Shown: positions 1 to 19,467 of the stretch, piece after piece
How positions within the stretch are numbered: position 1 is the stretch's first letter
How the letters are laid out: each line of letters starts with the position of its first letter
DNA from: an uncultured virus (IMG/VR IMGVR_UViG_3300005526_000008)
Taxonomy: Duplodnaviria; Heunggongvirae; Uroviricota; Caudoviricetes
IMG/VR virus record: IMGVR_UViG_3300005526_000008
Location: 55,330 to 75,329 of that record
DNA: 20,000 nucleotides
Direction: 5' to 3' (one strand)
Notes under the pieces: model-generated
What the model saw: only the letters and a program-made list of their open reading frames with translations
Database searches by the model: none
What the model was told of the DNA's origin: nothing
Translations under genes and position numbers: made by a program

Positions 1-2051
1 CCCGGTGGCTCGGGCACCGGCCCGCTCAACGACAGCCGTATGCCATGGCCATGCTTCATCGCCTGCTTCAGCCGGGCATGATGGATCTTGCCGGGCGGCT
101 GGTCGCCGGGCTGGTCGGTCGGGCCGCGACCGGGTGCGTTGATGACCCCTGTGGCGTTGGTCCAACCCTTGCGCATCGCACCCTCGTTCTTCTTGCCGAG
201 TTGCGGCGCCTTTCGGGACCGCGGGAAATCACCCTGCTGTTCAACCTTGCCTGAAGTGTATCTCGTTTTCAGACCAACTCCGTGCTTAAGCGAGGAAAAG
301 TAGCGTGTGATCGCTCGATGATGGGGCGTTATGATAGTGTGAGGCTTCTCAGGCGTTGCACCGAGAGCCATCGAAAAAGAATAGTCAGCACTTGATGCCC
401 CTGGAGGGATTTTGGTCGGATGGTTGTGAAATGTGTTTGACCCTTGGAAATCACGAAATCCTTTGATCGGCATTTTAACCTGAGTGGAATACGGCCTTCC
501 GGTGACGCGATGACTTACATGCCCCTTTGGATCGGTGATGATCAGCCGTTCCCTGCGCAAAGCATTGGCCCGCAACAGATCTCGCTTGATCTCAGGAAAT
601 GACGGTTTTTTGCCGATCGCCGTCGGCCGCCGGATCAGATCGCCAATATGCTGCCCGGCAATTCGCAGCACACGGGTGAGTGGCGCTCGCTTGATGAAAA
701 CGTTGTTCGGCGACATCCGGTAACGCTCGGTGCCGGTCAGCTTGCCGTGCTTGCGGCTGCTGAACTTCTTGCCGAACTCGCGCTTGAACGGCTCGAACGT
801 CTCGGGCTGGTTCTCGGTGTGCAGGCGGTCGAATACCCGGCGATGAGCGTATTGCATGAACAGCCGGAGCGGCTCGAGTTCGCGCTGCATCGTCGCGTCC
901 ATGGCGAAGTCGTAGTGGCCGACCCCGACCTTGTGCACCGCCATCAGCGCCGCATGCTTGTAGGCCCGTGCCGCCAGCCCCGGCGGCGTGCCTTTGGGGA
1001 TAAGGCCTTTCTTGTAACCGTATTCGACCGCGCCTTTCTGGTGATCGCGCACCACGCCAATCGAACGGCGCAGGATCTCGACCATGCGCGGATGGCGCAT
1101 CGCTTCGGTGAAGGTGCTGGGGTTCTCGATCGTCAGGTCACGATGCGGCCCAACCTTCTGTTTGCCCTTCTTTTTCGGCGGCTCGGCCAACGCTTCGGCC
1201 AGCAAAGGCCGTCCCATCGGGTAGGGCAGCAGCGATTCCGGCAGCGTGCTGCGATAGGCCTGGGGCAGGTGCAGCTTGAAGCGGGCGTTCATCGAGCCAA
1301 CCGCCTGCTCGGTGCCGCGGGTGTCCCAGACGCTGCGGCTGGCGCGTGTATCGGAGCGTTGCTGACCCTGCCGGAACAGGCCGATCGCTGCCTTCGACGG
1401 CGCTCCGGTGCTGCCCTGGCGTACCGAGATCGCGGTTTCGGCGTGATGGCGGGGACTGCGCGCGGCCGCGACGCGTTGCTGATGCTCGGCCGCCGACAGC
1501 AAGCCGGTGGTGTCGCGTTTCTTCAATCCGATCGGTTCGCCTGCCACGATGGGTTCGACAATGTTCTTCGCCCACTCGACATGCGCATCGGTCGCGCCGC
1601 CATCCTTGCCGTGGGAGGCTATGATCTGCCCTTTTGAATGGTGCAGTTGGTTGATGTCGTCCCTGAACTTGACGGTCTTGCCGACATGATCGTGGATGTG
1701 GCTGACCCAGTTGTTTAACGCCTTTCTCCGGCGCTGCCCCAGGTCGGTGGTGGGTTCAGGACCGTGCGCGGGCGGCGGCCCGTGAAACTGCTGTGGCTTC
1801 GGCGCCGGCGAAGGCGCGGCCGATTTGGGCGCCACGGAGGGACGCGGAGCCGCCGCTGCCGGGGGTGGCGTTTTGAAGGCTGTCCGCGGTGCAGACGCGG
1901 CGGTTGAACGGAATCTGCGCCGCATCGCCCCGGCAATACGCGCCCCTTTGCCTCGCATAAGCATGCCGGCCGCGATACCACCACCCGCCAATAACCCGGC
2001 CCCAGCAATCCTGGACGCCCAACCGGGTTTGTCAGGCTCCCGCTTTTTCAT
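1..2051 (-). CDS. Large multi-module protein directly downstream of the portal (putative internal head/ejected 'polyvalent' protein) with a JAB/MPN-like domain; 3'-truncated by the window edge
   Basis: Translated by hand. ATG at 2051 overlaps the portal stop (ATGA) and the frame stays open to position 1 (>683 codons: MKKREPDKPGWASRIAGAGLLAGGGIAAGMLM...RERLIITDPKG...TFHNHPTKIPPGASSADYSF...HGIRLSLSGPVPEPP). It is missing from the ORF track because there is no stop in the window. Confidence 0.88.
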   Translation of the reverse strand, partial: MKKREPDKPGWASRIAGAGLLAGGGIAAGMLMRGKGARIAGAMRRRFRSTAASAPRTAFKTPPPAAAAPRPSVAPKSAAPSPAPKPQQFHGPPPAHGPEPTTDLGQRRRKALNNWVSHIHDHVGKTVKFRDDINQLHHSKGQIIASHGKDGGATDAHVEWAKNIVEPIVAGEPIGLKKRDTTGLLSAAEHQQRVAAARSPRHHAETAISVRQGSTGAPSKAAIGLFRQGQQRSDTRASRSVWDTRGTEQAVGSMNARFKLHLPQAYRSTLPESLLPYPMGRPLLAEALAEPPKKKGKQKVGPHRDLTIENPSTFTEAMRHPRMVEILRRSIGVVRDHQKGAVEYGYKKGLIPKGTPPGLAARAYKHAALMAVHKVGVGHYDFAMDATMQRELEPLRLFMQYAHRRVFDRLHTENQPETFEPFKREFGKKFSSRKHGKLTGTERYRMSPNNVFIKRAPLTRVLRIAGQHIGDLIRRPTAIGKKPSFPEIKRDLLRANALRRERLIITDPKGHVSHRVTGRPYSTQVKMPIKGFRDFQGSNTFHNHPTKIPPGASSADYSFSMALGATPEKPHTIITPHHRAITRYFSSLKHGVGLKTRYTSGKVEQQGDFPRSRKAPQLGKKNEGAMRKGWTNATGVINAPGRGPTDQPGDQPPGKIHHARLKQAMKHGHGIRLSLSGPVPEPP
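240..690 (-). other. JAB/MPN (JAMM)-like metalloprotease domain within the 1..2051 ORF
   Basis: Glu (551-549) in ERLIITDPKG, then H-N-H (428-420), x8, S-x2-D (D at 386-384). This resembles the JAMM E...HxH-x7-S-x2-D motif with one extra spacer residue. The segment is visibly more AT-rich than its flanks. Boundaries are approximate. Confidence 0.65.
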
Positions 2052-3826
2052 TTGCCGCGCTTTGCCGACCTCAACTGCGCCGCATGTTTGTGCGCCATCT
2101 GCTCGCCGTGCGCCAAGGCTGCTTTAACGCCGGGATGTTCATGGAAAGGCACGACATTCGATCCGGCAGCGTCCACCATTTGACCTTCAGCGCCCACCAT
2201 GGCGCCCGTCATTTGGCCATTTGCCGGAGTTTCGGCGCCGTTTGCCGGAGTTTGCGGCGCGATCCCCAGCGCCTCGATGATCTCCGGCGGCAGGCCCTGC
2301 ACGAGTTCGTCGACCGATGGGTCGCCCTCGCCGGGCGCGCCGCCCAGTCCGGCCATCTCCTGGCCCGGCATCGTCGGCTGCGGCAGGCCGGTGACGTCCC
2401 AGCCGTTCGCGATGATCTTCTTGATGCCCTCGATCGAGAGGAAGCCCATCGGGCCGATGCCGCGCACGAAGGGCGGCACGCCGAGCGGTTCCATGCCGCG
2501 CTCGGTGCGGATGTCGTCGAGCGAGATCGCGCCCTCGTTGACCAGGACGACGTCGCGCTGTTCCTTCTCCGCGGGGTCGACTTTTCTGAAATCGTCCCAC
2601 ACCATCTCGATGTCCGGAAACCCGAACCAATCGGCAATGATGTAGTCGAGGAGACTCTTTATCCACGTCATAAGTGGGGCGAGGCCCTCCTGCAGGGCCT
2701 GTTCGTACATCGTCTCGCCGGTCGCGCGGTTGACCAGGCGAACGAACGGGGTCGGCGGCAGCGAGAAGCAGAAGGCGATGATACGCGCCAGCCACTCGTC
2801 AAACTGGTCGACCAGCGCCTCGGGCGAGCGGGTCATCACCGGGGTCACGCCGCCCGGGGCAAAGCGCATCTTCCGCCGGGTTACCGCGTCGTTGACGATG
2901 GTGTCCCAATAGGCTTGGAACTCGGCGATCTGTTGCGTGGTCCAGGTCGGAGGCACCTGCCACACCGCGTCGGGGATGGTGCCGTCGGTGAAGTAGGCGA
3001 GTTGCTGCGCCTGACGCCGCAGGCCGATATTCGCGGTGACCAGCACCTGCTCAACCGGGCTGCAGCCGTAGACCTTGTTCACCCGCCGGTTGCGCGGCGC
3101 GTAGATCATGTCCTCCTTGGAGAACTCGGCCGCGACGATGCCCTTCATGACCTGTTGGTAGGCTGGCCCGTCGAGCGGGGTGCGGCCGTCGTAGTTGAGC
3201 AGCGGCTTGATCATCGAGCCGTCGATGAGCTCAAAGCCGACCGTCTCGCCGCCGCGGTTCTTCTTGCGCACGATGGTCGCGGCATCGATGACCAGGTGTT
3301 CCTCGACGAGTTGCGACACCCATTGCTGCCAGCCGATCTCACCGTCGGGGCGCTCGAAAATGGCCTCGAGCTGGCGACAGCGGTCGTCGGTCTTGGGCCG
3401 CGACGCCTGATCGCCCTGCTTCTTCGGCATGATCGACTTCTTGAGGTTGCCGATCTGGTCCTTGCGGGTTTCGATGGCGAGGCGGATCAGGTCGTAGCCG
3501 CCCACGGCCGGGTCGGCGATGGCGCGCAGGCTTTCGAAGTTGATCGGCTCGAAGGAGCGCGGCGTATAGATAGTATTGTACGAAGTGGGGTAATCGAAAC
3601 GCCGACCACCCGCCCCGGGCGCCACGGGATCGAGCGGCCGGCCCGGCGGAAAGAACGGCAGTTCCGTAGACCCTGCCTGCCCCATCCCCAACCAGGTTCG
3701 CATCTGCCCGGAAATCCGCTGTATCAGTCCCGCCTCGACCGGGGTTGATGGGGCGTTGTCGCGGTTCATTCCCGGCAGGTTCATCGGCCGGTGCGGCATG
3801 TTCCAGGAACTAGGCGTGAGCGCCAC
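2048..3826 (-). CDS. Phage portal protein (HK97-type Phage_portal family) with a low-complexity C-terminal extension
   Basis: 592 aa. Portal-like motifs YDLIRLAIETRKDQI, LVIDA, YGCSPVEQV, YFTDGTIPD, FDEWLARIIAFCFSLPPTPFV, EGLAPLMTWIKSLLD and ISLDDIRTERGMEPL. GTG start abuts the upstream TAA. Confidence 0.93.
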   Translation of the reverse strand: MALTPSSWNMPHRPMNLPGMNRDNAPSTPVEAGLIQRISGQMRTWLGMGQAGSTELPFFPPGRPLDPVAPGAGGRRFDYPTSYNTIYTPRSFEPINFESLRAIADPAVGGYDLIRLAIETRKDQIGNLKKSIMPKKQGDQASRPKTDDRCRQLEAIFERPDGEIGWQQWVSQLVEEHLVIDAATIVRKKNRGGETVGFELIDGSMIKPLLNYDGRTPLDGPAYQQVMKGIVAAEFSKEDMIYAPRNRRVNKVYGCSPVEQVLVTANIGLRRQAQQLAYFTDGTIPDAVWQVPPTWTTQQIAEFQAYWDTIVNDAVTRRKMRFAPGGVTPVMTRSPEALVDQFDEWLARIIAFCFSLPPTPFVRLVNRATGETMYEQALQEGLAPLMTWIKSLLDYIIADWFGFPDIEMVWDDFRKVDPAEKEQRDVVLVNEGAISLDDIRTERGMEPLGVPPFVRGIGPMGFLSIEGIKKIIANGWDVTGLPQPTMPGQEMAGLGGAPGEGDPSVDELVQGLPPEIIEALGIAPQTPANGAETPANGQMTGAMVGAEGQMVDAAGSNVVPFHEHPGVKAALAHGEQMAHKHAAQLRSAKRGK

Positions 3827-4140: not shown

Positions 4141-4170
4141 ACCATAGGCAGCGATGTTCGTTTATTTCAA
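4141..4170 (-). promoter_or_regulatory. Putative sigma70-type promoter for the spike-base/portal module
   Basis: Minus strand reads TTGAAA (4170-4165), 18 nt, TATGGT (4146-4141). It occupies the largest intergenic gap of the window, ~30 nt upstream of the ATG at 4108. Confidence 0.45.
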
Positions 4171-4481
4171 GGATATGGCCATTTTTGCCTTGCCAGTTGC
4201 GCCCGCGAGACCATCCAGAGCTCGTTGGCCAGCGGCACCGGGTCGATCCCCAGGCGCTCCCACCACGCCAGTTCGTTGCCCGCATTCTCCACCGCGTCGT
4301 GGCAGCGGCGACAGATTGGAATAACCCAACAATCGCCGGATTTCAGCCCCCTTGCCCGAGGCTGCATGAATTTCAGATGATGCGGATCGGAAGGTGGGGC
4401 GGCACCACAGACGATGCATCGCAGAGTGCAGACGAAGACGAGATGATCTCGCGAACGTGGTCGAGCCGGCTTCTCAATCAA
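4167..4481 (-). CDS. DUF968-like / HNH-fold Zn-binding putative nuclease
   Basis: RSRDHLVFVCTLRCIVCG...DPHHL...GLKSGDCWVIPICRRCHDAVE...ELAWWERLGIDP matches the DUF968-type pattern (CxxCG..HH..K..D...PxCxxCH). Start placed at TTG 4481 (TTGA overlap with the HNH stop); the track start at 4502 is an alternative. Confidence 0.8.
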   Translation of the reverse strand: MIEKPARPRSRDHLVFVCTLRCIVCGAAPPSDPHHLKFMQPRARGLKSGDCWVIPICRRCHDAVENAGNELAWWERLGIDPVPLANELWMVSRAQLARQKWPYP

Positions 4482-5026
4482 CACCGAGGCACGTGCTTCC
4501 AAATTCTTCCAGCGCGGATTGACCAGATCATTGGTTGTCCAACGCCATACCTGCGCGCAAGCGTTCGTTGGCTGTCAGTAGATGAGCAGATTTCTCGGAT
4601 CTTCTGTTCCGTGAGGTTGCTTCGGTACAAGGGATGATCAGTTCCTCGTGGTATGCGGCCGTGCCGATCGCGATCATCAGAATTTTCGAGCGCCGTTGCC
4701 CATCGAAGATTGCCTTTGTGGCAGTTGCGACTGTTTCCATCCCAATGAGCCGTCTGATGAAAGCGACTTGGTCGCGGTCCATGAAAGGCTTCACAAACCA
4801 AAACATGCGCAGTGACGTATCGCTTTTCACAATTTCGCTGAAGCCCGTATTGAAAATACCGTCCGTTCCATCGGGGCTTAATGATCTTGCCGGCCTTGCT
4901 ATTTGATCCGTCGCGCTCACGACGAAGGTGTCCATACTCACTCACACCATAATTGTCGTTCCATTCCACAACGCGCCATTCCGCATCGGGTGGAACCGGA
5001 TCAGCCGGAGTGTTGTTTTTGCTCAT
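4478..5026 (-). CDS. NUMOD4-HNH homing endonuclease with C-terminal helix-turn-helix
   Basis: 182 aa. EWRVV..YGVSEYGHLR (NUMOD4-like); HVLVCEAFHGPRP..TAHWDGNSRNCHKGNLRWATALEN (HNH_3-type); LTEQKIREI..SQRTLARRYGVGQPMIWSIRAGRIWKH (HTH). More AT-rich than neighbours. Confidence 0.92.
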   Translation of the reverse strand: MSKNNTPADPVPPDAEWRVVEWNDNYGVSEYGHLRRERDGSNSKAGKIIKPRWNGRYFQYGLQRNCEKRYVTAHVLVCEAFHGPRPSRFHQTAHWDGNSRNCHKGNLRWATALENSDDRDRHGRIPRGTDHPLYRSNLTEQKIREICSSTDSQRTLARRYGVGQPMIWSIRAGRIWKHVPRC

Positions 5027-6062: not shown

Positions 6063-9000
6063 TCACGCCATCATCATGACGCGCGCTTGGCTGGCGAGGG
6101 CCTGGGTTCTGGCCGAAACGGCGACGTGACCCGCACCAGCAATGTCAACGCCCATGAAGATGGTTCGTGCCGAACCAATCTGGACGTTGCCCTGGCCGAC
6201 GATGATCGCCGAAACCGGGCACATCGCATAGGCGGTGAAGCCGCCGCCGCCGACGCCGTCGATCTGCGTGGCTGCGACCTGGCGGGTGTTGCCCCTGACG
6301 GTGACGCTGGCCTGAGCGTCGATGGTAACGACGGCAGCACGCAACGCCGTAGCGTTGACGTTGACCGCGCCCTGTCCGGCGATCGCGATTGTCGCGAACT
6401 GCGCCTTGTAGGCATCGACGGCCACGCTGCCCTGGGCCGCGATCGATGTGGCGCCGTAGGTGATGCGCGCGGCATCGATGCTGACGCTGGCCTGGGCCGC
6501 GATCGCGCTGGCCGCGACCATGCGCTGGGTGGTGGAGATGCTGACCGTGGCCGAGGCCGCGATCGCGGTGGTGCCTTCCTGCCGCCCTTGCTGGATTGCG
6601 TTGACGAGGAGGGTGCCGACGCCGCCGATCGAGACCGTGGCGAACTGGCGTACGCCGGCGGCGATGCTGACTGTGCCCAGTCCAGCAACCGCCACCGCCG
6701 TAACTTGGGTCAGGACGCTGCCGGCACTAACCGCGCCCTGCGCGGCCGTCGCCACCGCCGCCGGGCGTATACCGCCGGCGGCAGCACTGACCGCGCCGAC
6801 GCCAACGATCGAGGCGGCTGCGGGTTGCGCTTCACCCCCCGCGCCGAGGACGTTGCCGACGCCGGCGACGCTGACGGCAGCGAATTGGAGCTGCGCGGCC
6901 GCGACGCTGACCGCGCCCTGGCTGTCGATCGATGCTATGGCTGGTGAGCTGCGCCGCGCGTCGACCGCGACGTTGCCCAGGCCGCCGATCGTGATGGTCG
7001 CTGTCTGCACGCCGGCCGCTGCGGCACTTGCGGCGAACGCCCCAAGGCCCGCGATGGTCGTGGCGGCCGGTAGGTTCAGGACGGCGGAGGCGGCGACGCT
7101 GCCGGTGGCCGCGATCGCGATTGCTGCCGGTAGATTAAGGGTGGCGGATGCCGTGATGCTGCCGACGCCAGCGATCGTCGTGGCGGCGGTGTAGGAAACC
7201 GCCCCGCTGACGAACTGCGCATCAGCCGTGACGTTGCCGACGCCCGCGATGCTGGCCGTGGCATAGATCAGCTTGCCGGCCGAGGCCGCGACACTGCCAA
7301 CGCCGCCGATCGTCGCCGCGGCATAGACGATCTTGCCGGCATCGACCGCAACGCTGCCCTGTCCGGCAATCGGGATCGTCGCGAACCGGCGCGCGATCGC
7401 GTCAACGCTGACCGCGGCCTGGCCCGCAATGGCGACATTGCCCGGCTGCGAGCCGGCCGAATTCGCGCCGAACGCGCCAACGCCAGCGATCGCGATCGTC
7501 GCGAACTGCCGTTGTATCGCCGTGACGCTGACGGTGCCGAAACCCGGGATGCCAGCGGCAGCAGCTTCCGGCGTTACGGCAGCGGCGCTGACGTTGCCGA
7601 CGCCCGCAATCGTCGTCGCAGCATAAATCAGCTTGCCGGCCGCTACCCCGACGGTACCGACACCGGCGCTCGTGCTGGCCGCCACCATGCGCTGGATAGC
7701 GGCAACGCCGACTGCGCCCAGGCCGGCGCTCGTGCTGGCGGCCGGCTGCGCCCTGATGGCATTGATCGCAACGCTGCCAATGCCAGCACTCGTGCTGGCC
7801 GCGACCTGACGCTGGACGGCAGACGCCGCGACGTTGCCAATGGCCGCGATAGTGACGGCAGCGGTCCATACAGTGCCTGCTGGGGCTACCTTGGTCGCGT
7901 CGACCGCGATGCTGGCGACGCCCGCGATCGTCGTGGCGCCATAGGAAACTTGCCGTGCGCTGACGGCAACGTTTCCCGTCGCGGCCATGCTCGCCACAGG
8001 TTCGATAGTTGCCGGCAAAGCAGATAGGGGAATCAGGCCTGCCGCTGTGGGTAAGGGAGCATAGAATTGGATTGACCGGACGGCGACATAGCCGCCTTGG
8101 ATTGGTCTGTGATCGAATATTGCCGCCTTGAAGGAGTCCGCTGTCGGACGGTCCGCATCGATCAAAGTCAAAGCGATGGGGGTGGAATAGCCGTTGATGT
8201 CGGCTTCGAGACGGTTCGCGGTGACGGTGTAGGCCGTCACGTTGATCGCGCCGACGGCGGAATTGGCTGCGCCTAAGATGTCGCCGTAGGCCGGACCGCC
8301 CCATGTAGAAACGTCGAGATGGCTAGAGGCGCCAGGGGCGAAGGGGGTTAAGTCAATTTCCACGCCGTTGTCGCCGGACGGCGAAAAAACAGAAAGAACC
8401 ACACATCCGGTAGATGATCCTGAAATATTTTGACCGGTTTGGGTGTGGACGGTTCGCACCGTCGTAGCTGTCAGCAGTAAGTTACGGGCTTCGCCGATGA
8501 AAGCCGCGGACATCGTTGGCAGATAGCCGTCGGGGGTCAGTTCGGCGCTGTTGTAGCCCGTAGTCGTCCAGCCGGCGTCCGCGAGCGGGTCGTTGCCGAC
8601 GAGGGTGTTGATGCCGACGACGCCGACCCCTTGCACCCAAGCTCGGCCCTGTGGAGATCCTCCGATGAAGTCGATGTGGATCTGCGCACCTGGTGACACC
8701 CAGTCGGGGGCCAGTATCGCGGCGACGTTGCCCGCGCCGGCAATGGTCACTGCCGCGACCATGGTGACGCGTTCGCGGATCTGGATGGCGCGGAACGAAA
8801 CGGCCGGCGCCCCGACCGGCGGCAAGATCAGATCGCTGGGACCGTCCTCCGAGTAGCCGAGTTCGAGTTGCGGGGCGCCAATTCGTAGAGTGTTGTCGAA
8901 GGGAACGGCGGCGGCGCTGTCGAGGCCAAAGCCCCAGTAAGGCCTGATGAAGCGGACATCTGAAAAGGTGTTGGTGTCCGAGATGTCGTGCCTACAATCC

Positions 9001-12000
9001 CACAACGGTCCCGTGAAAGCGGATTTTCCGTCGGAATGATTGCTGTAGTGGACTCCGTTTTCGTCGAGCTCTTCCCAGCCTATGTAGAACATGCTGACGG
9101 GGCCCCATATGCCCTCGCCCACCAGTTGCTTGAGGTAAAAGCTGAATAGCCATCCCTGGTCGTAGCCTGCCGGGATGGCTGTGTTGGTTTCGAAATAATA
9201 AAAGTCCGAGCTGTAGTGTACCCCGTCGGTGGTGCCGAAGATGCGGACGTCGATGTAGGGGATGCCGTCTTCGTAACCCGTGCCGAGGATGGTTAAGCTC
9301 AGTCCCACGCTCGCGGCTGCGGCGCTCCAGTCCGAGAAGTAGGTCGGGACGGTGCCCGGAGTGCCCGCGACCGCGCCCTCGAAGCGTGGGTTGCGGATGT
9401 AGTTCGCCTGGCCGCCAAGACCGGCGATGGAAGTGACTGCCGACTGTCGAAGAAAAACGTTGACTGGGCTGAAGGTTGTGGTGGCAGCGATGGTGGCAAA
9501 AGCATCGTAGGCAATATGTCCTGCCGGATTTCGGACCAGCGCTTCGCAGACGACGCGGCCAACTCCACCCATAGCCACGTTCGTCTGGATCTTGACGTTG
9601 TCACGGATTTCAATCGCGCGCGACGTGACCGCGAGAACACCGACCGGCGGCAGGATCAGACCGGAAGCAGATGGTCCCAACTCGAGTTGCGGGCCACCGA
9701 TCCGAATGATGATGTCAACCGGAACGCCCAGACTGGTAAAGTATATTTTCCAATACGGACGAATGTAGGTGGCGAGAGCGGTGGTAGGATTAGCGTAGCT
9801 GTATCTTTGGCTTGACAAAGGCGCCGACGTCGGCACTTGCCCGGTATCGAAATCTCCGATTATATCAGCAAATTTACTACTATATTCTGTCCAGCCAACG
9901 GCAAGAGACGCAACATTGGAGGTGCTGCCTCCAACCAGTCTGACGTAGATGCTGCTTGACCAGGTTTTCCTCGGGGGTACCGGGATGGTGTCGTAGTCTT
10001 CGAAATAATGCGGATAGTAGGCCGTGCTCCCCGCCACCGTACCAACAAGATGAATGTCGATGTAGGGAATGCCGTCTTCGTAGCCGACGCCGGCAATAGT
10101 TTCGAACAGGCCGGACGGTGGGTTTCCCCACCCGGTCCAGTAGGTCGGCGGCGATCCTTCACTGGTGGAGGGATCGCCCGCCCTTCCGCCTTCCCCGCGC
10201 GGATTGCGAATGACGTTGGTCCGGCCGCTAACGCCCGCAGTCGTCGAGGCTGTGTAGACCGGGTGAAAATCCCAGGCCCTGACATTGCCCAAGCCACCGA
10301 TAGTGCTGACAGTTCGCGCTCTCAGAACAGCGCTATCGCTAACCGCACCCAGGCCGGCGATCGTGCTGGCGGCAACTTGGCGTTGAACCGCGGCAACACT
10401 GACCACAGCAACGCCGGCGCTCGTGCTGGCTGCATAGACAATGCGCCGCGCATCGACCGCAACATTGCCGGCAGCAGCGATTGTGCTGACCGCAACCTGG
10501 CGCTGAACGGCACTGACCGCGACGTTGCCGGCAGCCACGATCGTCGTGGCGCCGGTCCACTGGGTGCCCGCACCGGCCACCCGGGTCGCGTCGACCGCGA
10601 TGGTGCCGACGCCGCCGATCGTCACTGCCGCAACGGCCTGCAACCTGGGGTAGATCTCGATCGCGCGTGTGATTATCGCTGGAGCACCGACCGGCGGCAG
10701 GATATTGCCGGTGGTTTCGACGTTCTCCAGTTGTGGCCAACCAATGCGCAGCGTGAAGTCAAGCGCGGCTCCGCTTATCTTGGTATCGACATAGATATAT
10801 TGACGCATGTAGTCGGCGCCGGCTGTCGTGGTGGCGTTGTTCGCCACCGACACGTAGCGGGTGCCCAATCCGCCTGGTTGCACCAGGGTCGAAGGGGTGA
10901 AGTAGGTGTCAGTAATCCAATCGACTTGCCCGCCGCTATTGGCGTAGCTCTGCATCGACACCCAGAGGTAATCGATGAACGACGCATCGCCGGGGATAAT
11001 GCGCATGTAGAACGACGACGCCCAGGTCGAGGTTCTTGGGACCGGTGTCGCATCGCCATCCTGGGCAGGCTGTATGGTGATCTCACCGCCGCCGGGCGTG
11101 GACCCGGTGAAGCGAACGTCGATGTAGTCGATGCCATTCTCGACCCCGGTCCCGACGATCTGCTGGGTAAGACCGGCGTTGTTTACTATCTGTCTCCAGT
11201 AGGTCGGAATGGAGCCCGGCGTTCCGGCAACCGCGCCTTCCGCGCGTGGGTTACGGATATAGTTGGTTCTGCCGCTGACGCCGGCGATGGTGGCTGCAGC
11301 AGTCACCGTGCCGGTGTGCACCGTGGCGTACGCCTTGACGTAGCCGGTGCCGCCCGGGGTGGAGGGCCAAACCGTGTAACCCGAGGGCGGAGTGTTGGCG
11401 AAGGAGCCCAGGCCCATCTCGACCGTGGCGCTGATACCGGAATTCACCCCCAGTTGGGTCACTATGAAAAGCGGCGTGACCGGCACCAGGCCGCTGATGT
11501 CCAGGCCGGTCGACGGCGTGGTCGGACTGTTCGAGGCGTTGTCGTTCCAGTTGCCGCTCGGGAGCTGACGGAACCAAATCCGCTTATTGTCCATGTCGAG
11601 CGCCATGGCGATCGACGCGGTCGACCAGGAGAACAGTATTCCCGTGTTAGAGCCGTTCAGCAGCACTCCCATGCCGGGTACGGCTATGCAGCAGTGGGTA
11701 CTCGGGGAATAGACCTCGAAATAGGTGGTGAGGGCCGTCGTGGCGACGCCAAAGCTACTGTTCCCGTCGAAGCCGCTGCCCGGCGTGAATTCGGCGTAGA
11801 ACTTGCCGCTGCTGACGACGGAGTTGCCCTTGGCGCCGTCGAAACCGCCGGCAGTTTTCGTGATCGTGCGGTTGTTGTTCGTGAACAGCGTCGTGGCCGG
11901 CGCGTCCGGGGACAGCGGGTTCCACGACGGCAGCGTGCCGATCGTGACGGCGCCGGTGTAGGTGGTTCCGGCCGTGCCCGCCACGACTGTCGCATCGGCC

Positions 12001-15000
12001 GCGACGGCGCCGAGGCCCGCGATCGTCGATTTCGCGACCGCGCTGACACGCTCGCGGATCTCGATGGCACGCGACGAGATGCCCGGTGTGCCGATCGGCG
12101 GCAGGATCAGGCCGGAGACGTTACTCCCTAGTTCAAATTGCGGAGCGCCGATCCTAAAAGTGATGTCGATAGCAACACCACTTCCGGTAACACCAAATCC
12201 CCAAAATGGAGAAACATAGTAGGTATTGCGATCCAGATTTTGGCCGGGCCCGACAACCAACTGACGTTGGCTTATGAGGGGCGCCGTGGTCGGGTCGAAG
12301 GGAGCGCCGTTGTTGTGGACCGCAACCGCAGTGCCGGCGGCATTAAATTCACGCCAGCCAGCTTGGACCCCGGTGGTGTTGACCGTGCTGCCGCCAACTA
12401 AGCGGTGGTAGAAACTCAACCACCACGTGTCGGCAAATCCGCTGGGAATGCCCGCCGTCCCAGTGGGCTCGAAGTAAGCGGTGGTGAAGAAACCAGCGAC
12501 GTTAGTCGTGCCGGCGTAGCGGACATCAATGTAGGGAATGCCGTCTTCGGTGCCGATACCGATGATGCTGAACGTCAGGCCTAAATTGTCGCCCCATCCG
12601 TTCCAGAAAGTAGGAGCGGTGCCTGGCGTGCCAGCGACAGCGCCCTCGGCGCGGGGGTTGCGGATCGAATTGGTCCGACCGCTGACGCCAGCAAGAGTTG
12701 CATTGGCGGTATAGACAGCAGGGCCTATCCGCGTCGCATCGACCGCGACGGCGCCGACGCCGGCAATAGAAACGGCGGCGGCCAGGTTCTGGCTGAGCCT
12801 GCCCTGGGTGGCCGCACCCCAGTTTTCTACTGCGATTACATTCTCGCGAGCGGTTCCCAACGTCGGAGAGTAGGTTTGCTGGGTGGTGTCTTGAATGTAT
12901 TTCCACGCTCCGTTGAGAGTGGCATTCGTGTTCGCGACGCCGCCGGTATTGCCGACACGAGTAAGCGGCGGAGTAGTCCAATTATGGGTGGTGTCGTTAG
13001 TGAACGTCTCGACAACGTCGCCGGCGACGGCACTCACCCCTATCAACACGCCATAAGCCAAACTAGGGTTAAAATTCCGGCTCGGATTAGTAATGGCGGT
13101 ATTTTGAGTAAATGAGCTTTGAGGCGTCGGAAGCACGCTCCGTTGCAATCCGGTCGCATAAAAGATCGAAATGGCGGCGGTTAGAGCGGTTCCAACAATA
13201 GGGATCGTAATGGTTTGGCCGGCGCTTAGCGCCAGGCAGTTGGGACAGTAAGCTCTGGTTACACCGAATGAGGGTGTAGTAAGGATCCAGTTTCCGGGGA
13301 CCTGGGTGTAAACATTCCCTGCCGAATCAGTAGGGGGGCTGTTGAAACTGGCACCGCCGGAAGCCGTGACTGACGCGCTGTATATTACGATCAAGGAGCC
13401 GGCCGGCACGTTAGCCGTTAAGGTGACCGGCGTTGCGCCGCCGCCCGTTTTTTGCTGTGCCGTGCCGATCGCGAAGACCTGGGGTATATTATCCGGCGTG
13501 TCGAACTGCCCTTGTCCGGCAATCGTCGTTGCCGCCGTGACCCCCGCGGCCGCCGACCAGTTCGCGGTCGCTATGGTACAGGCGGACTGGTAAAAGACCA
13601 CTGCGCAGGAATTGGACGTGCCCGCGGTGGTCTCGTTCCACTCGACCTGGAAGAACAGGTATTCGCCATCCAGGATGATGGTCGGCGCGTTCCAGGTGAT
13701 GGTGGACGTGTAGGTCGTCGCAGTCGCTATCATCGACACGGTCGAGCCGGTCAGAGCGCCGCTGGTCAGCTCTCGCGCGTTGACGCCGTTCGAAGCGGGG
13801 CCGGCCCAGATCCGGCAGCGCATATTCCCCACGACCGTTGCCGCGAGGGTTCGCATGCCGAAATTGAGCGTCCAGTTGCCGGCGCCAAACGTACCGGCAT
13901 AGCGCACGGGCGAACGGAACGCATCGCCCGAGGTGGTGATGGTGGCGCCGGTGCCGGCGTTCGGATCAACGGCAAAGTCGAGATTGCTCGTCGCGGACGC
14001 AACTGTGGCGGTGGCGGTGGCGCCAATTCGAGCGCGCCAGAAAGGCGTGGTGGTGGCAGTTTTGGCAGTCGTCCATCCGAACGCGCTAGCTGCGGCAGTG
14101 GGTGCGGTGCCGCCGTCCTGCATCACGCCAAACCAGTCCGGCGTGGTGGCCGCCGTGTTCAGCATGTAGAGGGTCTTGGGCGAGCCCGCGCCGGGAACCG
14201 GCCGCAAGACCGGCGCTATCAGGGCAGGCGGCTGTCGCGCGCGCGGCGGCTGGCGGACAAGGCGAGCCTCCGCAATGTAGTCGAAGAAGGCCGCAGACGA
14301 CGCAGGGGTTTCATAGGGGCCGACGTCCCACGCGCTGCCTTGCGGCCGCGTCGTGCCATAGATGTCTGTGGCGCTGGGGATGTGGACGGTGTCGGTGTAG
14401 CCCGTGTTGAGCGCGTCGGCTCCCGCCTTCAGTTTGAAGTCGGTGCCAATGCCTACGAACTGGTTTGCCGCCGTCTTGCTGAACAGCGTCCCGGTATCGG
14501 TCCATCCTGACGGATAGCTGGTCCAGTTCACGACGTTGTTGCGCGCGACGCCCGAGGTCAGGTTGGCATTACCGATGCCGCCCCACCCCATGATTATGCA
14601 ATTCGTGACCGTCGTGGTGCCGGAGTAGTTGCGGTGGATGGCATCGAAACCGGCTTGTGAGTTCAGCGCGATCATCACGCAGTTGGTGAAGCTGCAGCTA
14701 TTGTTTTGGCCGTTCCATATCGGGCTGCCTGACCCTGCCACCGATTCGTCGATGAACACGCAGTTGACATGATCGACCGATGAGCTTCCGCCAGCCCCGA
14801 TGATGCCGTTGTTGGCCTGCTCGAAATTTTCCCCGCGCACAACCATCCGGCTGACCGTCGTGGTGCCGCTGCTGCCGTTTTTTCCCAGGGCCAGACTGGC
14901 ATTCTGATGGATCGCGCCTGGCGCTCGAACAAGCTGCAGGCCGTCCAGAAGCCCATAATCCTCTTGGAGGATAATATTGTAACTATAGTTGCCTGATCGG

Positions 15001-15446
15001 GATATCTGCACGCCATAGCTTGCGCTGGGGATTAGCGGGTTGGTGGCGCGGTTCGGATTGTCGGCGAAACTTTCACCCGGCGCGCATTTCAGGGAGATGA
15101 TGTTGGCGGCGGTTGTCGTGTGCCCCGTAATCGACACATACGTGGTGCGAACAATGTCGCCGTTGTTCCAGATCAAGCCTTCGTATGCCTGCGCCAGCGT
15201 GCCGGGGATCGACGTGACCCACGCATCGATGGTGGAATAGTCCGAAGCCCCGTAGGTCGAGAGCCATTTGAAGACGGCAACGCCGCCGTTGTTGATCCCG
15301 GTTCCGGTGCCGGTAGGGGCAGCGGTCGATGATCCTGCCGTGGTGCATCGGTAGGCGTTGCCGGCATTCGAGCATGCTTCGTTTAGCGCGAAGCTGTGGT
15401 TGCTCCAGGCTGCCAGGCCGGTGTGGATGTTACTGGTGACGGTCAA
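6063..15446 (-). CDS. Giant modular fibre/adhesin-like virion protein (3127 aa)
   Basis: One uninterrupted Ala/Gly/Thr/Val/Ser-rich ORF with a TTGA-coupled start and no signal peptide. N-terminal beta-helix-like region ends in a choice-of-anchor-Q-like motif (DFKLKAGADALNTG..DIYGTTRPQGSAWDVGPYE). Then several beta-sandwich domains, four homologous ~215-aa modules, a SPRY-like domain and 20-aa stalk repeats. Confidence 0.9.
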   Translation of the reverse strand: MTVTSNIHTGLAAWSNHSFALNEACSNAGNAYRCTTAGSSTAAPTGTGTGINNGGVAVFKWLSTYGASDYSTIDAWVTSIPGTLAQAYEGLIWNNGDIVRTTYVSITGHTTTAANIISLKCAPGESFADNPNRATNPLIPSASYGVQISRSGNYSYNIILQEDYGLLDGLQLVRAPGAIHQNASLALGKNGSSGTTTVSRMVVRGENFEQANNGIIGAGGSSSVDHVNCVFIDESVAGSGSPIWNGQNNSCSFTNCVMIALNSQAGFDAIHRNYSGTTTVTNCIIMGWGGIGNANLTSGVARNNVVNWTSYPSGWTDTGTLFSKTAANQFVGIGTDFKLKAGADALNTGYTDTVHIPSATDIYGTTRPQGSAWDVGPYETPASSAAFFDYIAEARLVRQPPRARQPPALIAPVLRPVPGAGSPKTLYMLNTAATTPDWFGVMQDGGTAPTAAASAFGWTTAKTATTTPFWRARIGATATATVASATSNLDFAVDPNAGTGATITTSGDAFRSPVRYAGTFGAGNWTLNFGMRTLAATVVGNMRCRIWAGPASNGVNARELTSGALTGSTVSMIATATTYTSTITWNAPTIILDGEYLFFQVEWNETTAGTSNSCAVVFYQSACTIATANWSAAAGVTAATTIAGQGQFDTPDNIPQVFAIGTAQQKTGGGATPVTLTANVPAGSLIVIYSASVTASGGASFNSPPTDSAGNVYTQVPGNWILTTPSFGVTRAYCPNCLALSAGQTITIPIVGTALTAAISIFYATGLQRSVLPTPQSSFTQNTAITNPSRNFNPSLAYGVLIGVSAVAGDVVETFTNDTTHNWTTPPLTRVGNTGGVANTNATLNGAWKYIQDTTQQTYSPTLGTARENVIAVENWGAATQGRLSQNLAAAVSIAGVGAVAVDATRIGPAVYTANATLAGVSGRTNSIRNPRAEGAVAGTPGTAPTFWNGWGDNLGLTFSIIGIGTEDGIPYIDVRYAGTTNVAGFFTTAYFEPTGTAGIPSGFADTWWLSFYHRLVGGSTVNTTGVQAGWREFNAAGTAVAVHNNGAPFDPTTAPLISQRQLVVGPGQNLDRNTYYVSPFWGFGVTGSGVAIDITFRIGAPQFELGSNVSGLILPPIGTPGISSRAIEIRERVSAVAKSTIAGLGAVAADATVVAGTAGTTYTGAVTIGTLPSWNPLSPDAPATTLFTNNNRTITKTAGGFDGAKGNSVVSSGKFYAEFTPGSGFDGNSSFGVATTALTTYFEVYSPSTHCCIAVPGMGVLLNGSNTGILFSWSTASIAMALDMDNKRIWFRQLPSGNWNDNASNSPTTPSTGLDISGLVPVTPLFIVTQLGVNSGISATVEMGLGSFANTPPSGYTVWPSTPGGTGYVKAYATVHTGTVTAAATIAGVSGRTNYIRNPRAEGAVAGTPGSIPTYWRQIVNNAGLTQQIVGTGVENGIDYIDVRFTGSTPGGGEITIQPAQDGDATPVPRTSTWASSFYMRIIPGDASFIDYLWVSMQSYANSGGQVDWITDTYFTPSTLVQPGGLGTRYVSVANNATTTAGADYMRQYIYVDTKISGAALDFTLRIGWPQLENVETTGNILPPVGAPAIITRAIEIYPRLQAVAAVTIGGVGTIAVDATRVAGAGTQWTGATTIVAAGNVAVSAVQRQVAVSTIAAAGNVAVDARRIVYAASTSAGVAVVSVAAVQRQVAASTIAGLGAVSDSAVLRARTVSTIGGLGNVRAWDFHPVYTASTTAGVSGRTNVIRNPRGEGGRAGDPSTSEGSPPTYWTGWGNPPSGLFETIAGVGYEDGIPYIDIHLVGTVAGSTAYYPHYFEDYDTIPVPPRKTWSSSIYVRLVGGSTSNVASLAVGWTEYSSKFADIIGDFDTGQVPTSAPLSSQRYSYANPTTALATYIRPYWKIYFTSLGVPVDIIIRIGGPQLELGPSASGLILPPVGVLAVTSRAIEIRDNVKIQTNVAMGGVGRVVCEALVRNPAGHIAYDAFATIAATTTFSPVNVFLRQSAVTSIAGLGGQANYIRNPRFEGAVAGTPGTVPTYFSDWSAAAASVGLSLTILGTGYEDGIPYIDVRIFGTTDGVHYSSDFYYFETNTAIPAGYDQGWLFSFYLKQLVGEGIWGPVSMFYIGWEELDENGVHYSNHSDGKSAFTGPLWDCRHDISDTNTFSDVRFIRPYWGFGLDSAAAVPFDNTLRIGAPQLELGYSEDGPSDLILPPVGAPAVSFRAIQIRERVTMVAAVTIAGAGNVAAILAPDWVSPGAQIHIDFIGGSPQGRAWVQGVGVVGINTLVGNDPLADAGWTTTGYNSAELTPDGYLPTMSAAFIGEARNLLLTATTVRTVHTQTGQNISGSSTGCVVLSVFSPSGDNGVEIDLTPFAPGASSHLDVSTWGGPAYGDILGAANSAVGAINVTAYTVTANRLEADINGYSTPIALTLIDADRPTADSFKAAIFDHRPIQGGYVAVRSIQFYAPLPTAAGLIPLSALPATIEPVASMAATGNVAVSARQVSYGATTIAGVASIAVDATKVAPAGTVWTAAVTIAAIGNVAASAVQRQVAASTSAGIGSVAINAIRAQPAASTSAGLGAVGVAAIQRMVAASTSAGVGTVGVAAGKLIYAATTIAGVGNVSAAAVTPEAAAAGIPGFGTVSVTAIQRQFATIAIAGVGAFGANSAGSQPGNVAIAGQAAVSVDAIARRFATIPIAGQGSVAVDAGKIVYAAATIGGVGSVAASAGKLIYATASIAGVGNVTADAQFVSGAVSYTAATTIAGVGSITASATLNLPAAIAIAATGSVAASAVLNLPAATTIAGLGAFAASAAAAGVQTATITIGGLGNVAVDARRSSPAIASIDSQGAVSVAAAQLQFAAVSVAGVGNVLGAGGEAQPAAASIVGVGAVSAAAGGIRPAAVATAAQGAVSAGSVLTQVTAVAVAGLGTVSIAAGVRQFATVSIGGVGTLLVNAIQQGRQEGTTAIAASATVSISTTQRMVAASAIAAQASVSIDAARITYGATSIAAQGSVAVDAYKAQFATIAIAGQGAVNVNATALRAAVVTIDAQASVTVRGNTRQVAATQIDGVGGGGFTAYAMCPVSAIIVGQGNVQIGSARTIFMGVDIAGAGHVAVSARTQALASQARVMMMA
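6096..8000 (-). repeat. About 31 tandem degenerate 20-aa (60-bp) coding repeats, consensus roughly AA(S/T)TIAGxGxVxVxAxxxxx
   Basis: Examples: AASTSAGIGSVAINAIRAQP / AASTSAGLGAVGVAAIQRMV / AASTSAGVGTVGVAAGKLIY. The 60-nt DNA period is visible (ctcgtgctggc recurs near 7669, 7729, 7789). Four units are 2-6 aa longer. Confidence 0.92.
8764..9423 (-). repeat. Fibre module copy 4 (~215 aa, CBM/jelly-roll-like)
   Basis: ANYIRNPRFEGAVAGTPGTVPTYF...GTGYEDGIPYIDVR...LRIGAPQLELG...LILPPVGAPAVSFRAIQIRERV; boundaries approximate. Confidence 0.88.
9592..10236 (-). repeat. Fibre module copy 3
   Basis: RTNVIRNPRGEGGRAG...PPTYW...GVGYEDGIPYIDIH...IRIGGPQLELG..LILPPVG..SRAIEIRDNV; boundaries approximate. 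Confidence 0.88.
10240..10635 (-). repeat. Internal block of ~6-7 stalk repeats (20 aa)
   Basis: GATTIVAAGNVAVSAVQRQV / AVSTIAAAGNVAVDARRIVY / AASTSAGVAVVSVAAVQRQV / AASTIAGLGAVSDSAVLRAR. Confidence 0.85.
10640..11283 (-). repeat. Fibre module copy 2
   Basis: RTNYIRNPRAEGAVAGTPGSIPTYW...GTGVENGIDYIDVR...LRIGWPQLEN..ILPPVGAPAIITRAIEIYPRL; boundaries approximate. Confidence 0.88.
11355..11930 (-). other. SPRY/B30.2-like (ConA-fold) domain inside the fibre
   Basis: FTNNNRTIT..SSGKFYAEF..FGVAT..IAMALDMDNKRIWFR..FANTPPSGYTVW follows the SPRY pattern seen in phage fibres. Confidence 0.75.
12046..12689 (-). repeat. Fibre module copy 1
   Basis: RTNSIRNPRAEGAVAGTPGTAPTFW...GIGTEDGIPYIDVR...FRIGAPQFELG..LILPPIG..SRAIEIRERV; boundaries approximate. 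Confidence 0.88.
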
Positions 15447-17568: not shown

Positions 17569-18609
17569 TCAGTGTCCTTTCAGGTTGGAGCGGACGGCGG
17601 TGAAAACCGTGTCGAGTGCGATGTCCGCCATGCACTTCGACGCCTCGGCGTCAGCAGCCTTGACGCAGGTGCTCGCGTCGTCATGCAGCCTGTGACAGGG
17701 ATAGCAGGGCACGCGCTCCGGATCGGCGTGCAAGGACGTCGTATTAACCCAGTGCTTGGTGATGTTCTCTTCCGAAGCGTGCGACAACACCACCACCTTC
17801 GGCATCTTCTCCATCGCCACCGCCCAGGCCAGCCCGGTGTCGGGCGTGAGCACCAGGTCGCATTGCTGAATGGTGGCGAGCGCCCGGCGGATCGGCCAGG
17901 ATGGGTTCTTGGGATCGGGGGAAATGGCGGCGTGCAGTCCGTCAAGCGAGCCACGCCAGAGCTGTACGAAGTCCTGGACGTGCTGCGCCATCTTGTGATC
18001 GCGCTCGCCGGCCCCGAACAGCACTACCCTGACCTCGAGCTCGCCAAGCAGGCGCACCACCAGCATCGGCAAGTACGGCCAAATCTTATCAAGGCGCGAA
18101 CCAGAGATGGCGATGCCGACCACCCGGCGGTTCACGCCGTCACGTACGTTGTCCAGCGTGTCCCCGGCCTGCATCTGCTCTTTCTCGGTCGGGTAGAAGC
18201 GCGGACCGGGATCGAACTGGTGCGCCACGCCGCAAATGTCGTGGACATATTCGAGGTAGTTGTGACCGCACATCTTGCGTCGGAAGGCATCTGGCCACCA
18301 AAACGCGCATTCATTCCTGAACAGCGCCAGCTTGGTTTCGCAGCTGTGCGACAGGTTCACCCACCAGTCGTATTCGCTGCCGCGGTCGCGCATCCAGGCA
18401 TGCCATTGCTCGCCGTTGCCACCGGACGGAATATCACCTTCCTTCTTGACGATAATCCGCGACACGTAGGGGTTATTCTCGAAAACACAGGCCTGCGGCG
18501 CCTGCGCCATGACGTCGACCTCGTGGTTTTTGGCCAGCAGCGATAGCGCTGAAGCGGCGATGAGATTGTCGCCGATGCCGCCGAGCCGAACCACGAGGGC
18601 CCGGCTCAC
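17569..18609 (-). CDS. Glycosyltransferase family 9 (ADP-heptosyltransferase-like, GT-B fold)
   Basis: 346 aa from GTG 18609 (GTGA overlap). ALVVRLGGIGDNL, VFENNPYV, SRLDKIWP, CDLVLTPDTGLAWAVA and C-terminal CYPC-x9-C-x10-CMADI. Confidence 0.88.
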   Translation of the reverse strand: MSRALVVRLGGIGDNLIAASALSLLAKNHEVDVMAQAPQACVFENNPYVSRIIVKKEGDIPSGGNGEQWHAWMRDRGSEYDWWVNLSHSCETKLALFRNECAFWWPDAFRRKMCGHNYLEYVHDICGVAHQFDPGPRFYPTEKEQMQAGDTLDNVRDGVNRRVVGIAISGSRLDKIWPYLPMLVVRLLGELEVRVVLFGAGERDHKMAQHVQDFVQLWRGSLDGLHAAISPDPKNPSWPIRRALATIQQCDLVLTPDTGLAWAVAMEKMPKVVVLSHASEENITKHWVNTTSLHADPERVPCYPCHRLHDDASTCVKAADAEASKCMADIALDTVFTAVRSNLKGH

Positions 18610-19465: not shown

Positions 19466-19467
19466 GG

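Follow-up and report, generated by a model that had tools for sequence, protein, structure and literature searches.

Among described phage systems, the closest to the protein considered here are the polyvalent proteins of phages with portal–terminase packaging. Iyer et al. 2017 (PMC5512222) predict that these proteins enter the capsid and are injected, and describe a RadC-type JAB and an InPase among their many domains, as well as MuF/portal fusions. The window analysed here is a stretch of 20,000 nucleotides from an uncultured tailed phage (Caudoviricetes), corresponding to G000:C1:55330-75329, the final 20 kb of a 75,329-bp virus record (IMG/VR IMGVR_UViG_3300005526_000008). On its minus strand, overlapping the end of the portal gene, begins a gene for a 1129-residue protein, named P0002. 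This protein fits the polyvalent definition of the same authors by its multi-domain make-up, its packaging-gene context and the swapping of InPase and JAB domains among its orthologues, in line with the class to which a first-pass annotation of this DNA had looked. On balance, we consider it probable that P0002 is a polyvalent protein with exchangeable enzyme cassettes that is packaged in the capsid and probably ejected from it, and whose RadC-like JAB would act on an early host target.

Like the RadC-JAB polyvalent proteins of PMC5512222, P0002 is large and multi-domain, is encoded beside packaging genes, bears a JAB of the HNHP...S..D kind and belongs to a group in which domains are shuffled between orthologues; the InPase of its relatives is also described in that study. 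It differs in that its JAB module is matched by none of the Pfam RadC, Prok-JAB and JAB models, begins with a two-helix extension of its own, in which H, G, P, R and R are invariant and D and P near-invariant, and belongs to a family with six to eight residues between HxH and S. Furthermore, its scaffold domains, namely, the core and the RLNTQ segment described below, match no Pfam model. Pfam, we presume, includes the large polyvalent-protein domain families.

Three other described systems share features with P0002. The JAMM/MPN+ deubiquitinases and peptidases of ubiquitin-like proteins (Ubl), such as AMSH/Sst2, Rpn11, PfJAMM1, Cap3 and the Bil-type deubiquitinase, agree with the P0002 module in predicted fold and in the order and placement of E, HxH and S..D, and provide its best structural matches; however, identity amounts to 9–14% in the top five rows of the VIA-align search, and the P0002 domain is embedded in a 1129-residue head-module protein. 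MuF or SPP1 gp7-type minor head proteins are likewise encoded in the portal-to-capsid interval, one JAB–MuF fusion exists (P0022), and six BFVD 'minor capsid proteins' are among the fold matches of the module, but P0002 itself is without a MuF domain. With regard to Tox-JAB domains, presented by Zhang et al. 2012 (PMC3482391) as divergent JAB clades serving as deliverable effector modules, weak Atlas leads go to PF15659 and DUF4329/Prok-JAB clusters (0.83–0.87, below 0.9). In contrast to these, P0002 has neither an immunity gene nor an RHS/secretion context, and its module gives no Pfam match to PF15659 or PF14220.

The P0002 gene and its segments

The minus-strand frame at window positions 3..2051 comprises 683 residues and is stop-free up to the left window edge. 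Extension of the contig to find its stop codon, as had been proposed earlier, shows that the frame closes in the whole record, the remaining 446 codons lying at G000:C1:53991-55329. The ATG at 2051-2049, which is the sole start codon within 24 open codons upstream, overlaps the portal TGA at 2050-2048. The first-pass annotation had described a mosaic open frame coupled to the portal gene by ATGA, and this description is borne out by the frame, the overlap and the segment composition; the segments that it listed (Gly-rich hydrophobic, Pro/Ala, His-rich, basic domain and E...HNH-x8-S-x2-D) are all recognised by composition and hydropathy. The protein as a whole is strongly basic, with 192 K+R versus 76 D+E. 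Its segments within the window, together with the portal gene, are as follows:

1..2051, minus strand: first 683 codons of the 1129-codon open reading frame of P0002 (frame read in the window and in the full record)
2048..2051, minus strand: ATGA overlap of the P0002 start codon and the portal stop codon (direct sequence reading)
2048..3826, minus strand: portal protein gene, 592 residues (PF04860, E 2.7e-13; phrog_2662, E 4.9e-58)
1950..2018, minus strand: residues 12-34, Gly/Ala-rich hydrophobic segment, possible membrane helix (Kyte–Doolittle 19-residue mean 1.38)
1752..1916, minus strand: residues 46-100, Pro/Ala-rich linker (16 P and 13 A of 55)
1527..1751, minus strand: residues 101-175, small His-rich segment with no relative found (7 H of 80, residues 101-180)
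1452..1526, minus strand: residues 176-200, junction motif KKRDTTGLLSAAEHQQRVAAA, where the proteins of relatives begin (motif comparison)
687..1499, minus strand: residues 185-455, conserved basic core domain of unknown fold (45–59% identity to 7 relatives; net charge +24)
177..686, minus strand: residues 456-625, predicted JAB/MPN+ cassette of low GC content, an insert relative to the closest relatives (alignment, profile and model)
549..551, minus strand: E501, putative JAMM glutamate opening a predicted beta strand (invariant across all 13 modules; model strand 53-57)
384..428, minus strand: H542-N-H544...S553-x2-D556, putative JAMM metal/catalytic motif (alignment conservation and model)
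3..176, minus strand: residues 626-683, WTNATGV..PGRGPTDQ, common to P0003-P0005, where homology resumes (alignment)

The exact P0002 protein is on record in JGI/IMG, Logan and ENA, on 2 contigs, and a 91.5-kb IMG/VR contig encodes it at 100% identity; a 489-residue truncated record, P0013, covers the left cassette junction. The GC content at third codon positions (GC3) exceeds that at second positions (GC2) in 20 of 22 windows of 150 bases, GC3 being lower at residues 1-100 and 551-600. It amounts to 0.72–0.92 in 17 of these 22 windows, to 0.64–0.70 at residues 1-100 and 901-950 and to 0.46–0.64 at residues 451-600, with a value of about 0.5 over most of the cassette (residues 501-600). Codon-position GC supports coding over most of P0002. 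That the frame is an artefact, arising from chimeric assembly or from a chance open frame in GC-rich DNA, is a reading to which we give almost no credence and which is already largely refuted. GC-rich genomes yield long spurious open reading frames, many opposite-strand frames of 300–550 residues are present in the window, and the cassette has a GC3 of only about 0.5; however, protein-level homologues are known for the core, the cassette and the distal segments, the identical protein comes from three sources and 2 contigs with P0013 crossing the left cassette junction, and synteny is kept in related loci.

A predicted, divergent RadC-like JAB/MPN+ module

The module was analysed with a 180-residue query, P0010 (window 165-704, minus strand), whose numbering plus 449 gives that of P0002. 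Searched against 1.84 billion cluster representatives, P0010 gave 13 phmmer matches at E <= 1e-3, four of them at E <= 1e-10. One match is a truncated copy of the query and the rest are mosaic proteins of 308–1389 residues, the other 12 aligned modules being 20–41% identical to that of the query. Eleven positions are invariant across the 13 modules (P0010 numbering: H19, G31, P34, R41, R45, E52, V63, G69, H93, H95 and S104), and D22, P27, G61, N94 and D107 are conserved in at least 90% of them. In P0002 numbering, E501, H542, H544 and S553 are thus invariant and D556 near-invariant (at least 90%). Since the E/H/H/S/D motif is conserved across modules with only 20–41% identity to the query, it goes beyond chance, and the alignment indicates that the full JAMM set E...HxH...S..D is under constraint, along with a family-specific N-terminal extension predicted as two helices. 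HNH is found in 12 of the 13 modules, and PS..D in most relatives; the RadC signature is HNHP(SG)...PS..D. Of a different kind is a second JAB-like motif present in two of the relatives, which reads YHSHP..SPPSPAD in P0016 (about residues 690-720) and HNHSEATPLSIPD in P0018 (about 430-450).

A PDB profile search with the alignment of the 13 modules returned 15 matches at E <= 10, all of them JAMM/MPN proteins (two archaeal Rpn11-like, six BRCC36/BRCC3, one RadC and six Rpn11), with the HxH/S..D region in register. In Pfam, no JAB family was matched at E <= 10 by any of the 13 modules. A search of IMG/VR with a narrower alignment of the module retrieved no phage other than this one. An Atlas search on the module provided sub-threshold leads to Phage_min_cap2, Prok-JAB and Toxin-JAB1, with scores of 0.83–0.88 for a tool level of 0.9.

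With regard to the fold, AlphaFold2 run on the single sequence was uninformative (mean predicted local distance difference test, pLDDT, 38.6). Supplied with the 13-row alignment, it produced a model with a pLDDT of 67.1 and a predicted template modelling score (pTM) of 0.60, the pLDDT reaching 86–93 over model residues 21-70. In this model, E52 opens a strand (53-57), HxH closes another (90-94) and S104/D107 open a helix (105-113), a placement of E, HxH and S..D that is canonical for JAMM. Comparison by VIA-align with 48,161 PDB representatives placed JAMM/MPN structures in 17 of the 18 top rows, with Z 8.2–6.2 and covering model residues 31-150; the remaining row is an unannotated structural-genomics protein. 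The bacterial Ubl-deubiquitinase 8tyy_B ranks highest (Z 8.2; root-mean-square deviation, rmsd, 3.7 A over 112 residues), in the company of Sst2 (8.0), PfJAMM1 (8.0), Rpn11 (7.3), Cap3 (9ild_A, 7.0) and AfJAMM (6.8). RadC 2qlc, at Z 7.0, superposes with the smallest rmsd (3.1 A over 94 residues) and is the most similar in sequence (18% identity). In a Foldseek search of the PDB, the top 13 rows were all AMSH, AMSH-LP, Sst2 or RadC, with a best E of 1.1e-3, and Foldseek against BFVD gave 8 matches at E <= 1e-3 (best 8.7e-5). The named rows among the top 50 of BFVD comprise six 'minor capsid protein', two 'RadC-like JAB domain containing protein' (1276 and 1429 residues), four 'RadC DNA repair proteins', two MPN proteins, a metalloprotease, a deubiquitination hydrolase and a tail component. 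The related cytidine deaminase fold, with Z <= 6.0 in VIA-align, was rejected; the deaminase metal motif, H/C-x-E ... PC-x-x-C, is not in the module sequence.

Taken together, motif conservation, sequence profile and fold independently agree, each at moderate strength, and on this ground we assign the module, at about residues 457-600 of P0002, with high confidence, as a predicted JAB/MPN+ domain with a competent metal site. The JAB/MPN-like domain that had been read from the letters is hence upheld by the fold and by the conserved JAMM motif, and the structural comparison suggested for it puts JAMM/MPN structures first; the part that does not stand is recognition by existing models, as no Pfam JAB, Prok-JAB or RadC model matches. 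The predicted domain fits better on the RadC side of the superfamily, given its HNHP...(P)S..D signature and the fact that RadC yields the best identity and rmsd. Because PF04002 (RadC) is unmatched, we name the module RadC-like, rather than a RadC member.

These same matches bear on one possible function, along the lines of the first-pass annotation, in which the JAB module would be a virion-delivered deconjugating isopeptidase of the Cap3/Bil type, stripping Ubl conjugates made by host defence (CBASS Cap2, Bil) from phage or host proteins. The bacterial deubiquitinase 8tyy_B and Cap3 are among its best fold matches, and Zhang et al. 2012 (PMC3482391) describe all characterised JAMM enzymes as peptidases acting at Ubl C-termini. 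The Bil system is reported to conjugate Ubl to a phage tail protein (10.1101/2023.09.04.556158), and a virion-borne eraser would make sense for that reason. However, the fold matches fail to single out the Cap3/Bil clade, because they are tied within 1–2 Z units with RadC, AMSH, Rpn11 and PfJAMM1, and RadC, which is favoured by the HNHP signature and has the top identity, belongs to a clade argued in PMC5512222 to be without the Ubl-tail groove. Moreover, we noticed no gene for a Ubl, E1 or E2 in the vicinity; the adjoining genes, scanned with PHROG and Pfam apart from the o400 open reading frame, gave head genes only, and no CD-NTase. The co-occurring cassettes are nucleotide-directed (InPase and P-loop kinase). 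PADLOC, whose models we take to include defence-system JAB proteins, gave no family at E <= 1 with any of P0002, the module, P0021 and P0017. A Cap3/Bil-type counter-defence role for the module is thus speculative, and we hold it to be unlikely.

Cassette exchange on a conserved scaffold

Seven relatives of similar length (P0003-P0009) emerged from a word-indexed search of 5.8 billion proteins; they are 45–59% identical to P0002 over 22–30% of its length. They share with it a scaffold made of the core (residues 185-455), a PEPPGG..HVKHAAxxVExHF / RLNTQ..GGxTRxERW segment at about 690-790 and a Gly/Ala-rich C-terminal region; the WTNATGV..PGRGPTDQ piece is common to three of the 7. Against 19 collected proteins, the core gives phmmer E values of 1e-103 to 7e-9. 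It has no fold match in PDB or Atlas, the PDB profile having kept 599 positions that include non-core columns, with weak matches that lie outside the core. In a PDB sequence search with the whole protein, the sole match is the low-complexity Pro/Ala linker. The family is rare, with 7 full-length relatives, 5 shorter core-bearing records and 13 representative matches, plus P0024 from a profile search.

At its N-terminus, P0002 departs from this plan. The motif L[ST]xAExxxRxxA occurs at residues 1-14 of P0003-P0009, but at residue 185 of P0002 and, because all 7 relatives start at this junction motif, the first 175 residues or so of P0002 constitute an extra N-terminal module. Within it, residues 12-34 align with the GW...hydrophobic...G[KR] segments of P0008 and P0009, and the His-rich segment has no tblastn match in the related loci L005-L008 and no Pfam or PHROG family match. 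P0008, P0009 and P0015 have two or three copies of the motif, placed where modules meet. A fuller form, (K/R)(K/R)xPxL[ST]xAExxxRxxA, marks the N-terminus or module borders, with up to three per protein, and is carried by P0002, P0003-P0009, P0015, P0017, P0020 and the start of the open reading frame at 8424-10001 of the locus L011. In the single-unit proteins P0017 and P0020, MLPLAKR stands at the start and GLPLAK.. at the end, which gives the impression of units excised from a tandem array. Judging from where it occurs, the junction motif could be a capsid-targeting signal, a protease signal or a recombination linker.

The JAB cassette interrupts the shared scaffold. Residues 456-625 are missing from all 7 full-length relatives, homology ending at ..FIK and resuming at WTNATGV. 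The GC content of the cassette is 0.48–0.57, versus 0.62–0.72 in its flanks, and its GC3 0.46–0.64, versus 0.76–0.92 in the core, a trough that fits recent acquisition from a source of lower GC. A target-site duplication at the cassette borders was looked for and rejected: the sole candidate, an 11-nt exact direct repeat with copies at window 189-199 and 765-775, lies near the borders but fails to flank the insert, and a repeat of this kind is close to chance expectation (about 0.05 estimated). The two copies of this repeat, 576 nt apart and in frame, both encode GKK.

Other cassettes occupy the scaffold in other members of the group. An InPase (PF18823, E 8e-44 to 6e-47) follows the ERW segment in 4 of the 7 full-length relatives, and none is found in P0002. 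The closest module to that of P0002 (46% identical) is in P0011, placed after the ERW segment and before an InPase; a 333-residue core-only protein, P0025, suggests a split form with P0011. P0012, P0014, P0015, P0018, P0023 and P0024 carry the module as a fusion with the core's C-terminal half (phmmer E 7e-72 to 7e-9), and in P0022 it is joined to a P-loop kinase and a MuF domain. By motif scan, a Gly/Ala-rich hydrophobic helix (Kyte–Doolittle 19-residue mean 1.13–2.17) lies 33–79 residues upstream of the module in 13 of its 16 copies, which suggests that the usual helix and JAB unit may be membrane-tethered. The copies of P0002, P0011 and P0023 are not preceded by this helix, and P0002 has one only at its N-terminus. 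Just before such helices and cassettes, an HPRxxxGRF/W motif occurs in P0007, P0012, P0014, P0016, P0018, P0019, P0022 and P0023; it is absent from P0002.

These features also feed the view that the cassette is a recent passenger, inactive or irrelevant, and that P0002 is a purely structural internal head or ejection protein. The cassette is low in GC and GC3, is absent from the four closest phages, is without the upstream hydrophobic helix seen before 13 of the 16 copies in the family, and has an HxH-to-S spacing two residues longer than in most relatives. On the other hand, none of the five catalytic residues or of eleven further family-invariant positions has been lost, the frame is open, and the closest module (P0011, 46%) is equally intact; we regard a mere passenger as improbable.

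Head-module context and related phages

The genes on the 3' side of P0002 encode, in order, proteins of 174, 264 and 210 residues, a 746-residue MuF protein, and proteins of 501, 1570 and 1649 residues. Beyond the 1649-residue gene come an interval with unscanned plus-strand open reading frames, and then a 503-residue phrog_13692 protein and adaptor and neck proteins. P0002 is a head-module gene of an uncultivated phage of about 91 kb. The first-pass annotation had placed it in the slot often held by MuF proteins, an identification that has to be abandoned since a separate MuF gene lies about 3 kb downstream, the domain being at the C-terminus of the 746-residue protein (PF04233, E 4.3e-11; phrog_3517, E 1e-65); P0002 does not match PF04233 (0 Pfam families at E <= 1).

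Four closest IMG/VR phages, L005-L008, are known from contigs of 28.7–105 kb (three of about 98–105 kb), and their portals are 53–75% identical to that of the window. The order HNH, portal and P0002 homologue is kept in all four, as is a match to the 210-residue open reading frame, and the JAB cassette is absent from each; several of these homologues have an InPase instead. Matches to the MuF and 501-residue open reading frames follow the homologue in L005-L007; in L008, neither was matched within the locus. An extra open reading frame of 181–205 residues lies between the portal gene and the P0002 homologue in L005 (7371-7988, plus strand) and L007 (7469-8014, plus strand), so that the tight ATGA coupling to the portal is not universal in the group. 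The window portal itself is nearest to portals of phages of Alphaproteobacteria, the nearest isolated ones being those of Brevundimonas phages, at 39–41% identity. The nearest of these isolates by portal, Brevundimonas phage Polewnik, has no P0002 homologue, and its post-portal genes are annotated as hypothetical only.

A more distant carrier comes from a cultured bacterium. P0021, an NCBI protein of Falsiroseomonas sp. CW058, carries the JAB module, and its locus, L011, has the order HNH, portal, a 525-residue gene, P0021, further genes and MuF. The L011 portal is 46% identical to the window portal, and the 525-residue gene opens with the junction motif and holds the C-terminal half of the core. 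Portal and 525-residue genes overlap by ATGA, and the 525-residue gene and that of P0021 by GTGA (4 nt each). Portal, core, JAB and then MuF are therefore found together repeatedly, with fused as well as split forms, as distant elements show, though the cassette is missing from the nearest relatives.

The position of the gene in a head-assembly module also raises the question of a morphogenetic protease, that is, a JAB acting in the infected cell or procapsid to trim P0002 or other head proteins, for instance at L[ST]xAE, rather than an injected effector. In addition to that position, the recurrence of L[ST]xAExxxRxxA at module borders and the names 'tail component' and 'minor capsid protein' of JAB-fold phage proteins in BFVD speak for it. 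However, the 7 full-length relatives have the junction motif without the JAB, and processing at this motif consequently cannot depend on the JAB. Furthermore, a separate prohead-protease-like domain is present in the 1570-residue protein (phrog_9427, E 1e-5), and the four closest phages assemble without the cassette. We judge this role rather unlikely.

Proposed function

We favour the view that P0002 is packaged and probably ejected, and propose the following working. A lineage-specific scaffold, consisting of the core, the HVKHAA...RLNTQ...ERW segment at about 700-790 and a Gly/Ala-rich C-terminal third, is kept between the portal and MuF genes, and enzyme cassettes are swapped in and out of it, with an InPase in several relatives and the JAB in P0002. 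The P0002 cassette, located between the core and the next conserved segment, would be a recently acquired, divergent RadC-like JAB/MPN+ domain with all JAMM residues intact. Gene context suggests that P0002 could be loaded into the procapsid beside the portal and leave the capsid with the DNA. Early in infection, the JAB cassette might then carry out Zn-dependent hydrolysis of a host target, either at a peptide or isopeptide bond or in a nucleic acid or nucleotide, and the Gly/Ala-rich segments may have a membrane role.

Readings of the substrate diverge, because the peptidase precedent of the characterised enzymes has to be set against the RadC-like signature, the nucleotide-directed cassettes (InPase and P-loop kinase) and the high positive charge. 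Action of the RadC-type JAB on nucleic acids or nucleotides is put forward as a hypothesis by Iyer et al. 2017 (PMC5512222), as is the similar view that Zhang et al. 2012 (PMC3482391) take of Tox-JAB domains. We lean slightly towards a target that is not ubiquitin-like.

Several observations weigh against the proposed working as a whole. As for the module, the PDB profile matches are individually non-significant (E 0.092–1), no Foldseek PDB match reaches E <= 0.001 and TM-scores are 0.33–0.39, and VIA-align Z values of 7–8 fall within a range that, by the tool's own warning, can reflect a common arrangement. PF04002 has no match at E <= 10 on the module or on the six frames of the record, and the spacing from HxH to S is x8 in P0002 and x6 in most relatives, the canonical JAMM motif being HxH-x7-S-x2-D. 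A cassette of such low GC content might also have arrived only recently as a passenger, without a function in this host as yet or having already lost it. With regard to the whole protein, P0002 is unmatched in Pfam (E <= 1), PHROGs (E <= 0.1), NCBIfam and PADLOC, and tblastn found no homologue in 50,697 GenBank phage records. The core and the C-terminal two fifths are without an assignable fold, and for that reason we infer the loading and ejection steps from gene context alone.

A bolder combination of the same elements can be imagined, in which the hydrophobic helix and the RadC-like JAB would form a hitherto unrecognised membrane-tethered, capsid-delivered enzyme erasing Ubl (Bil/CBASS-type) or other protein conjugates at the DNA entry site, L[ST]xAE serving as a capsid-targeting and cleavage signal that releases each cassette. 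This is a long shot; if true, no earlier case would exist of a phage countering bacterial Ubl-conjugation immunity with an enzyme carried in its virion.

Other features of the neighbourhood

Several very large proteins are encoded between the portal and capsid genes. The giant 1649- and 1570-residue open reading frames of the head module are at G000:C1:37539-47197 (minus strand), outside the window, and the 1570-residue protein combines the weakly prohead-protease-like N-terminus mentioned above with a DUF6496 match (E 8.5e-9). Just 5' of the portal gene are two HNH endonuclease genes (window 4167-4502 and 4478-5026, both on the minus strand; phrog_96, E 4e-12, and phrog_59, E 1e-31), of which the 111-residue HNH is kept at the same position in L005-L008 and L011. 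A large terminase was not identified within the scanned part of the record.

Upstream of the portal block, a 3127-residue open reading frame (window 6063-15446, minus strand) contains internal repeats that are 34–57% identical and has no Pfam or PHROG match; a 629-residue open reading frame of the Falsiroseomonas locus (L011 12225-14114) matches these repeats at 28–33%. Further upstream, at window 17569-19588 (minus strand), are a 249-residue open reading frame resembling S-adenosylmethionine-dependent methyltransferases (PF13649, E 1.9e-7) and one of 394 residues with a sub-threshold match to glycosyltransferase family 9 (E 5.9e-4).

Significance for phage polyvalent proteins

The polyvalent concept is already published, and what sets the present case apart is a scaffold family found in no library and a JAB clade missed by Pfam, PHROGs, NCBIfam and PADLOC. 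With a few dozen sequences, the family is rare and conceptually anticipated, which makes the finding useful, not surprising. It brings to the known phage polyvalent proteins a scaffold family that had not been annotated, and offers a natural experiment in cassette exchange, with one scaffold and one genomic slot holding a JAB here and an InPase in several relatives, in fused and split forms. Since one carrier is in a cultured bacterium, Falsiroseomonas sp. CW058, the packaging and processing of these proteins, as well as the putative activity of their RadC-like JAB, are open to experimental test.

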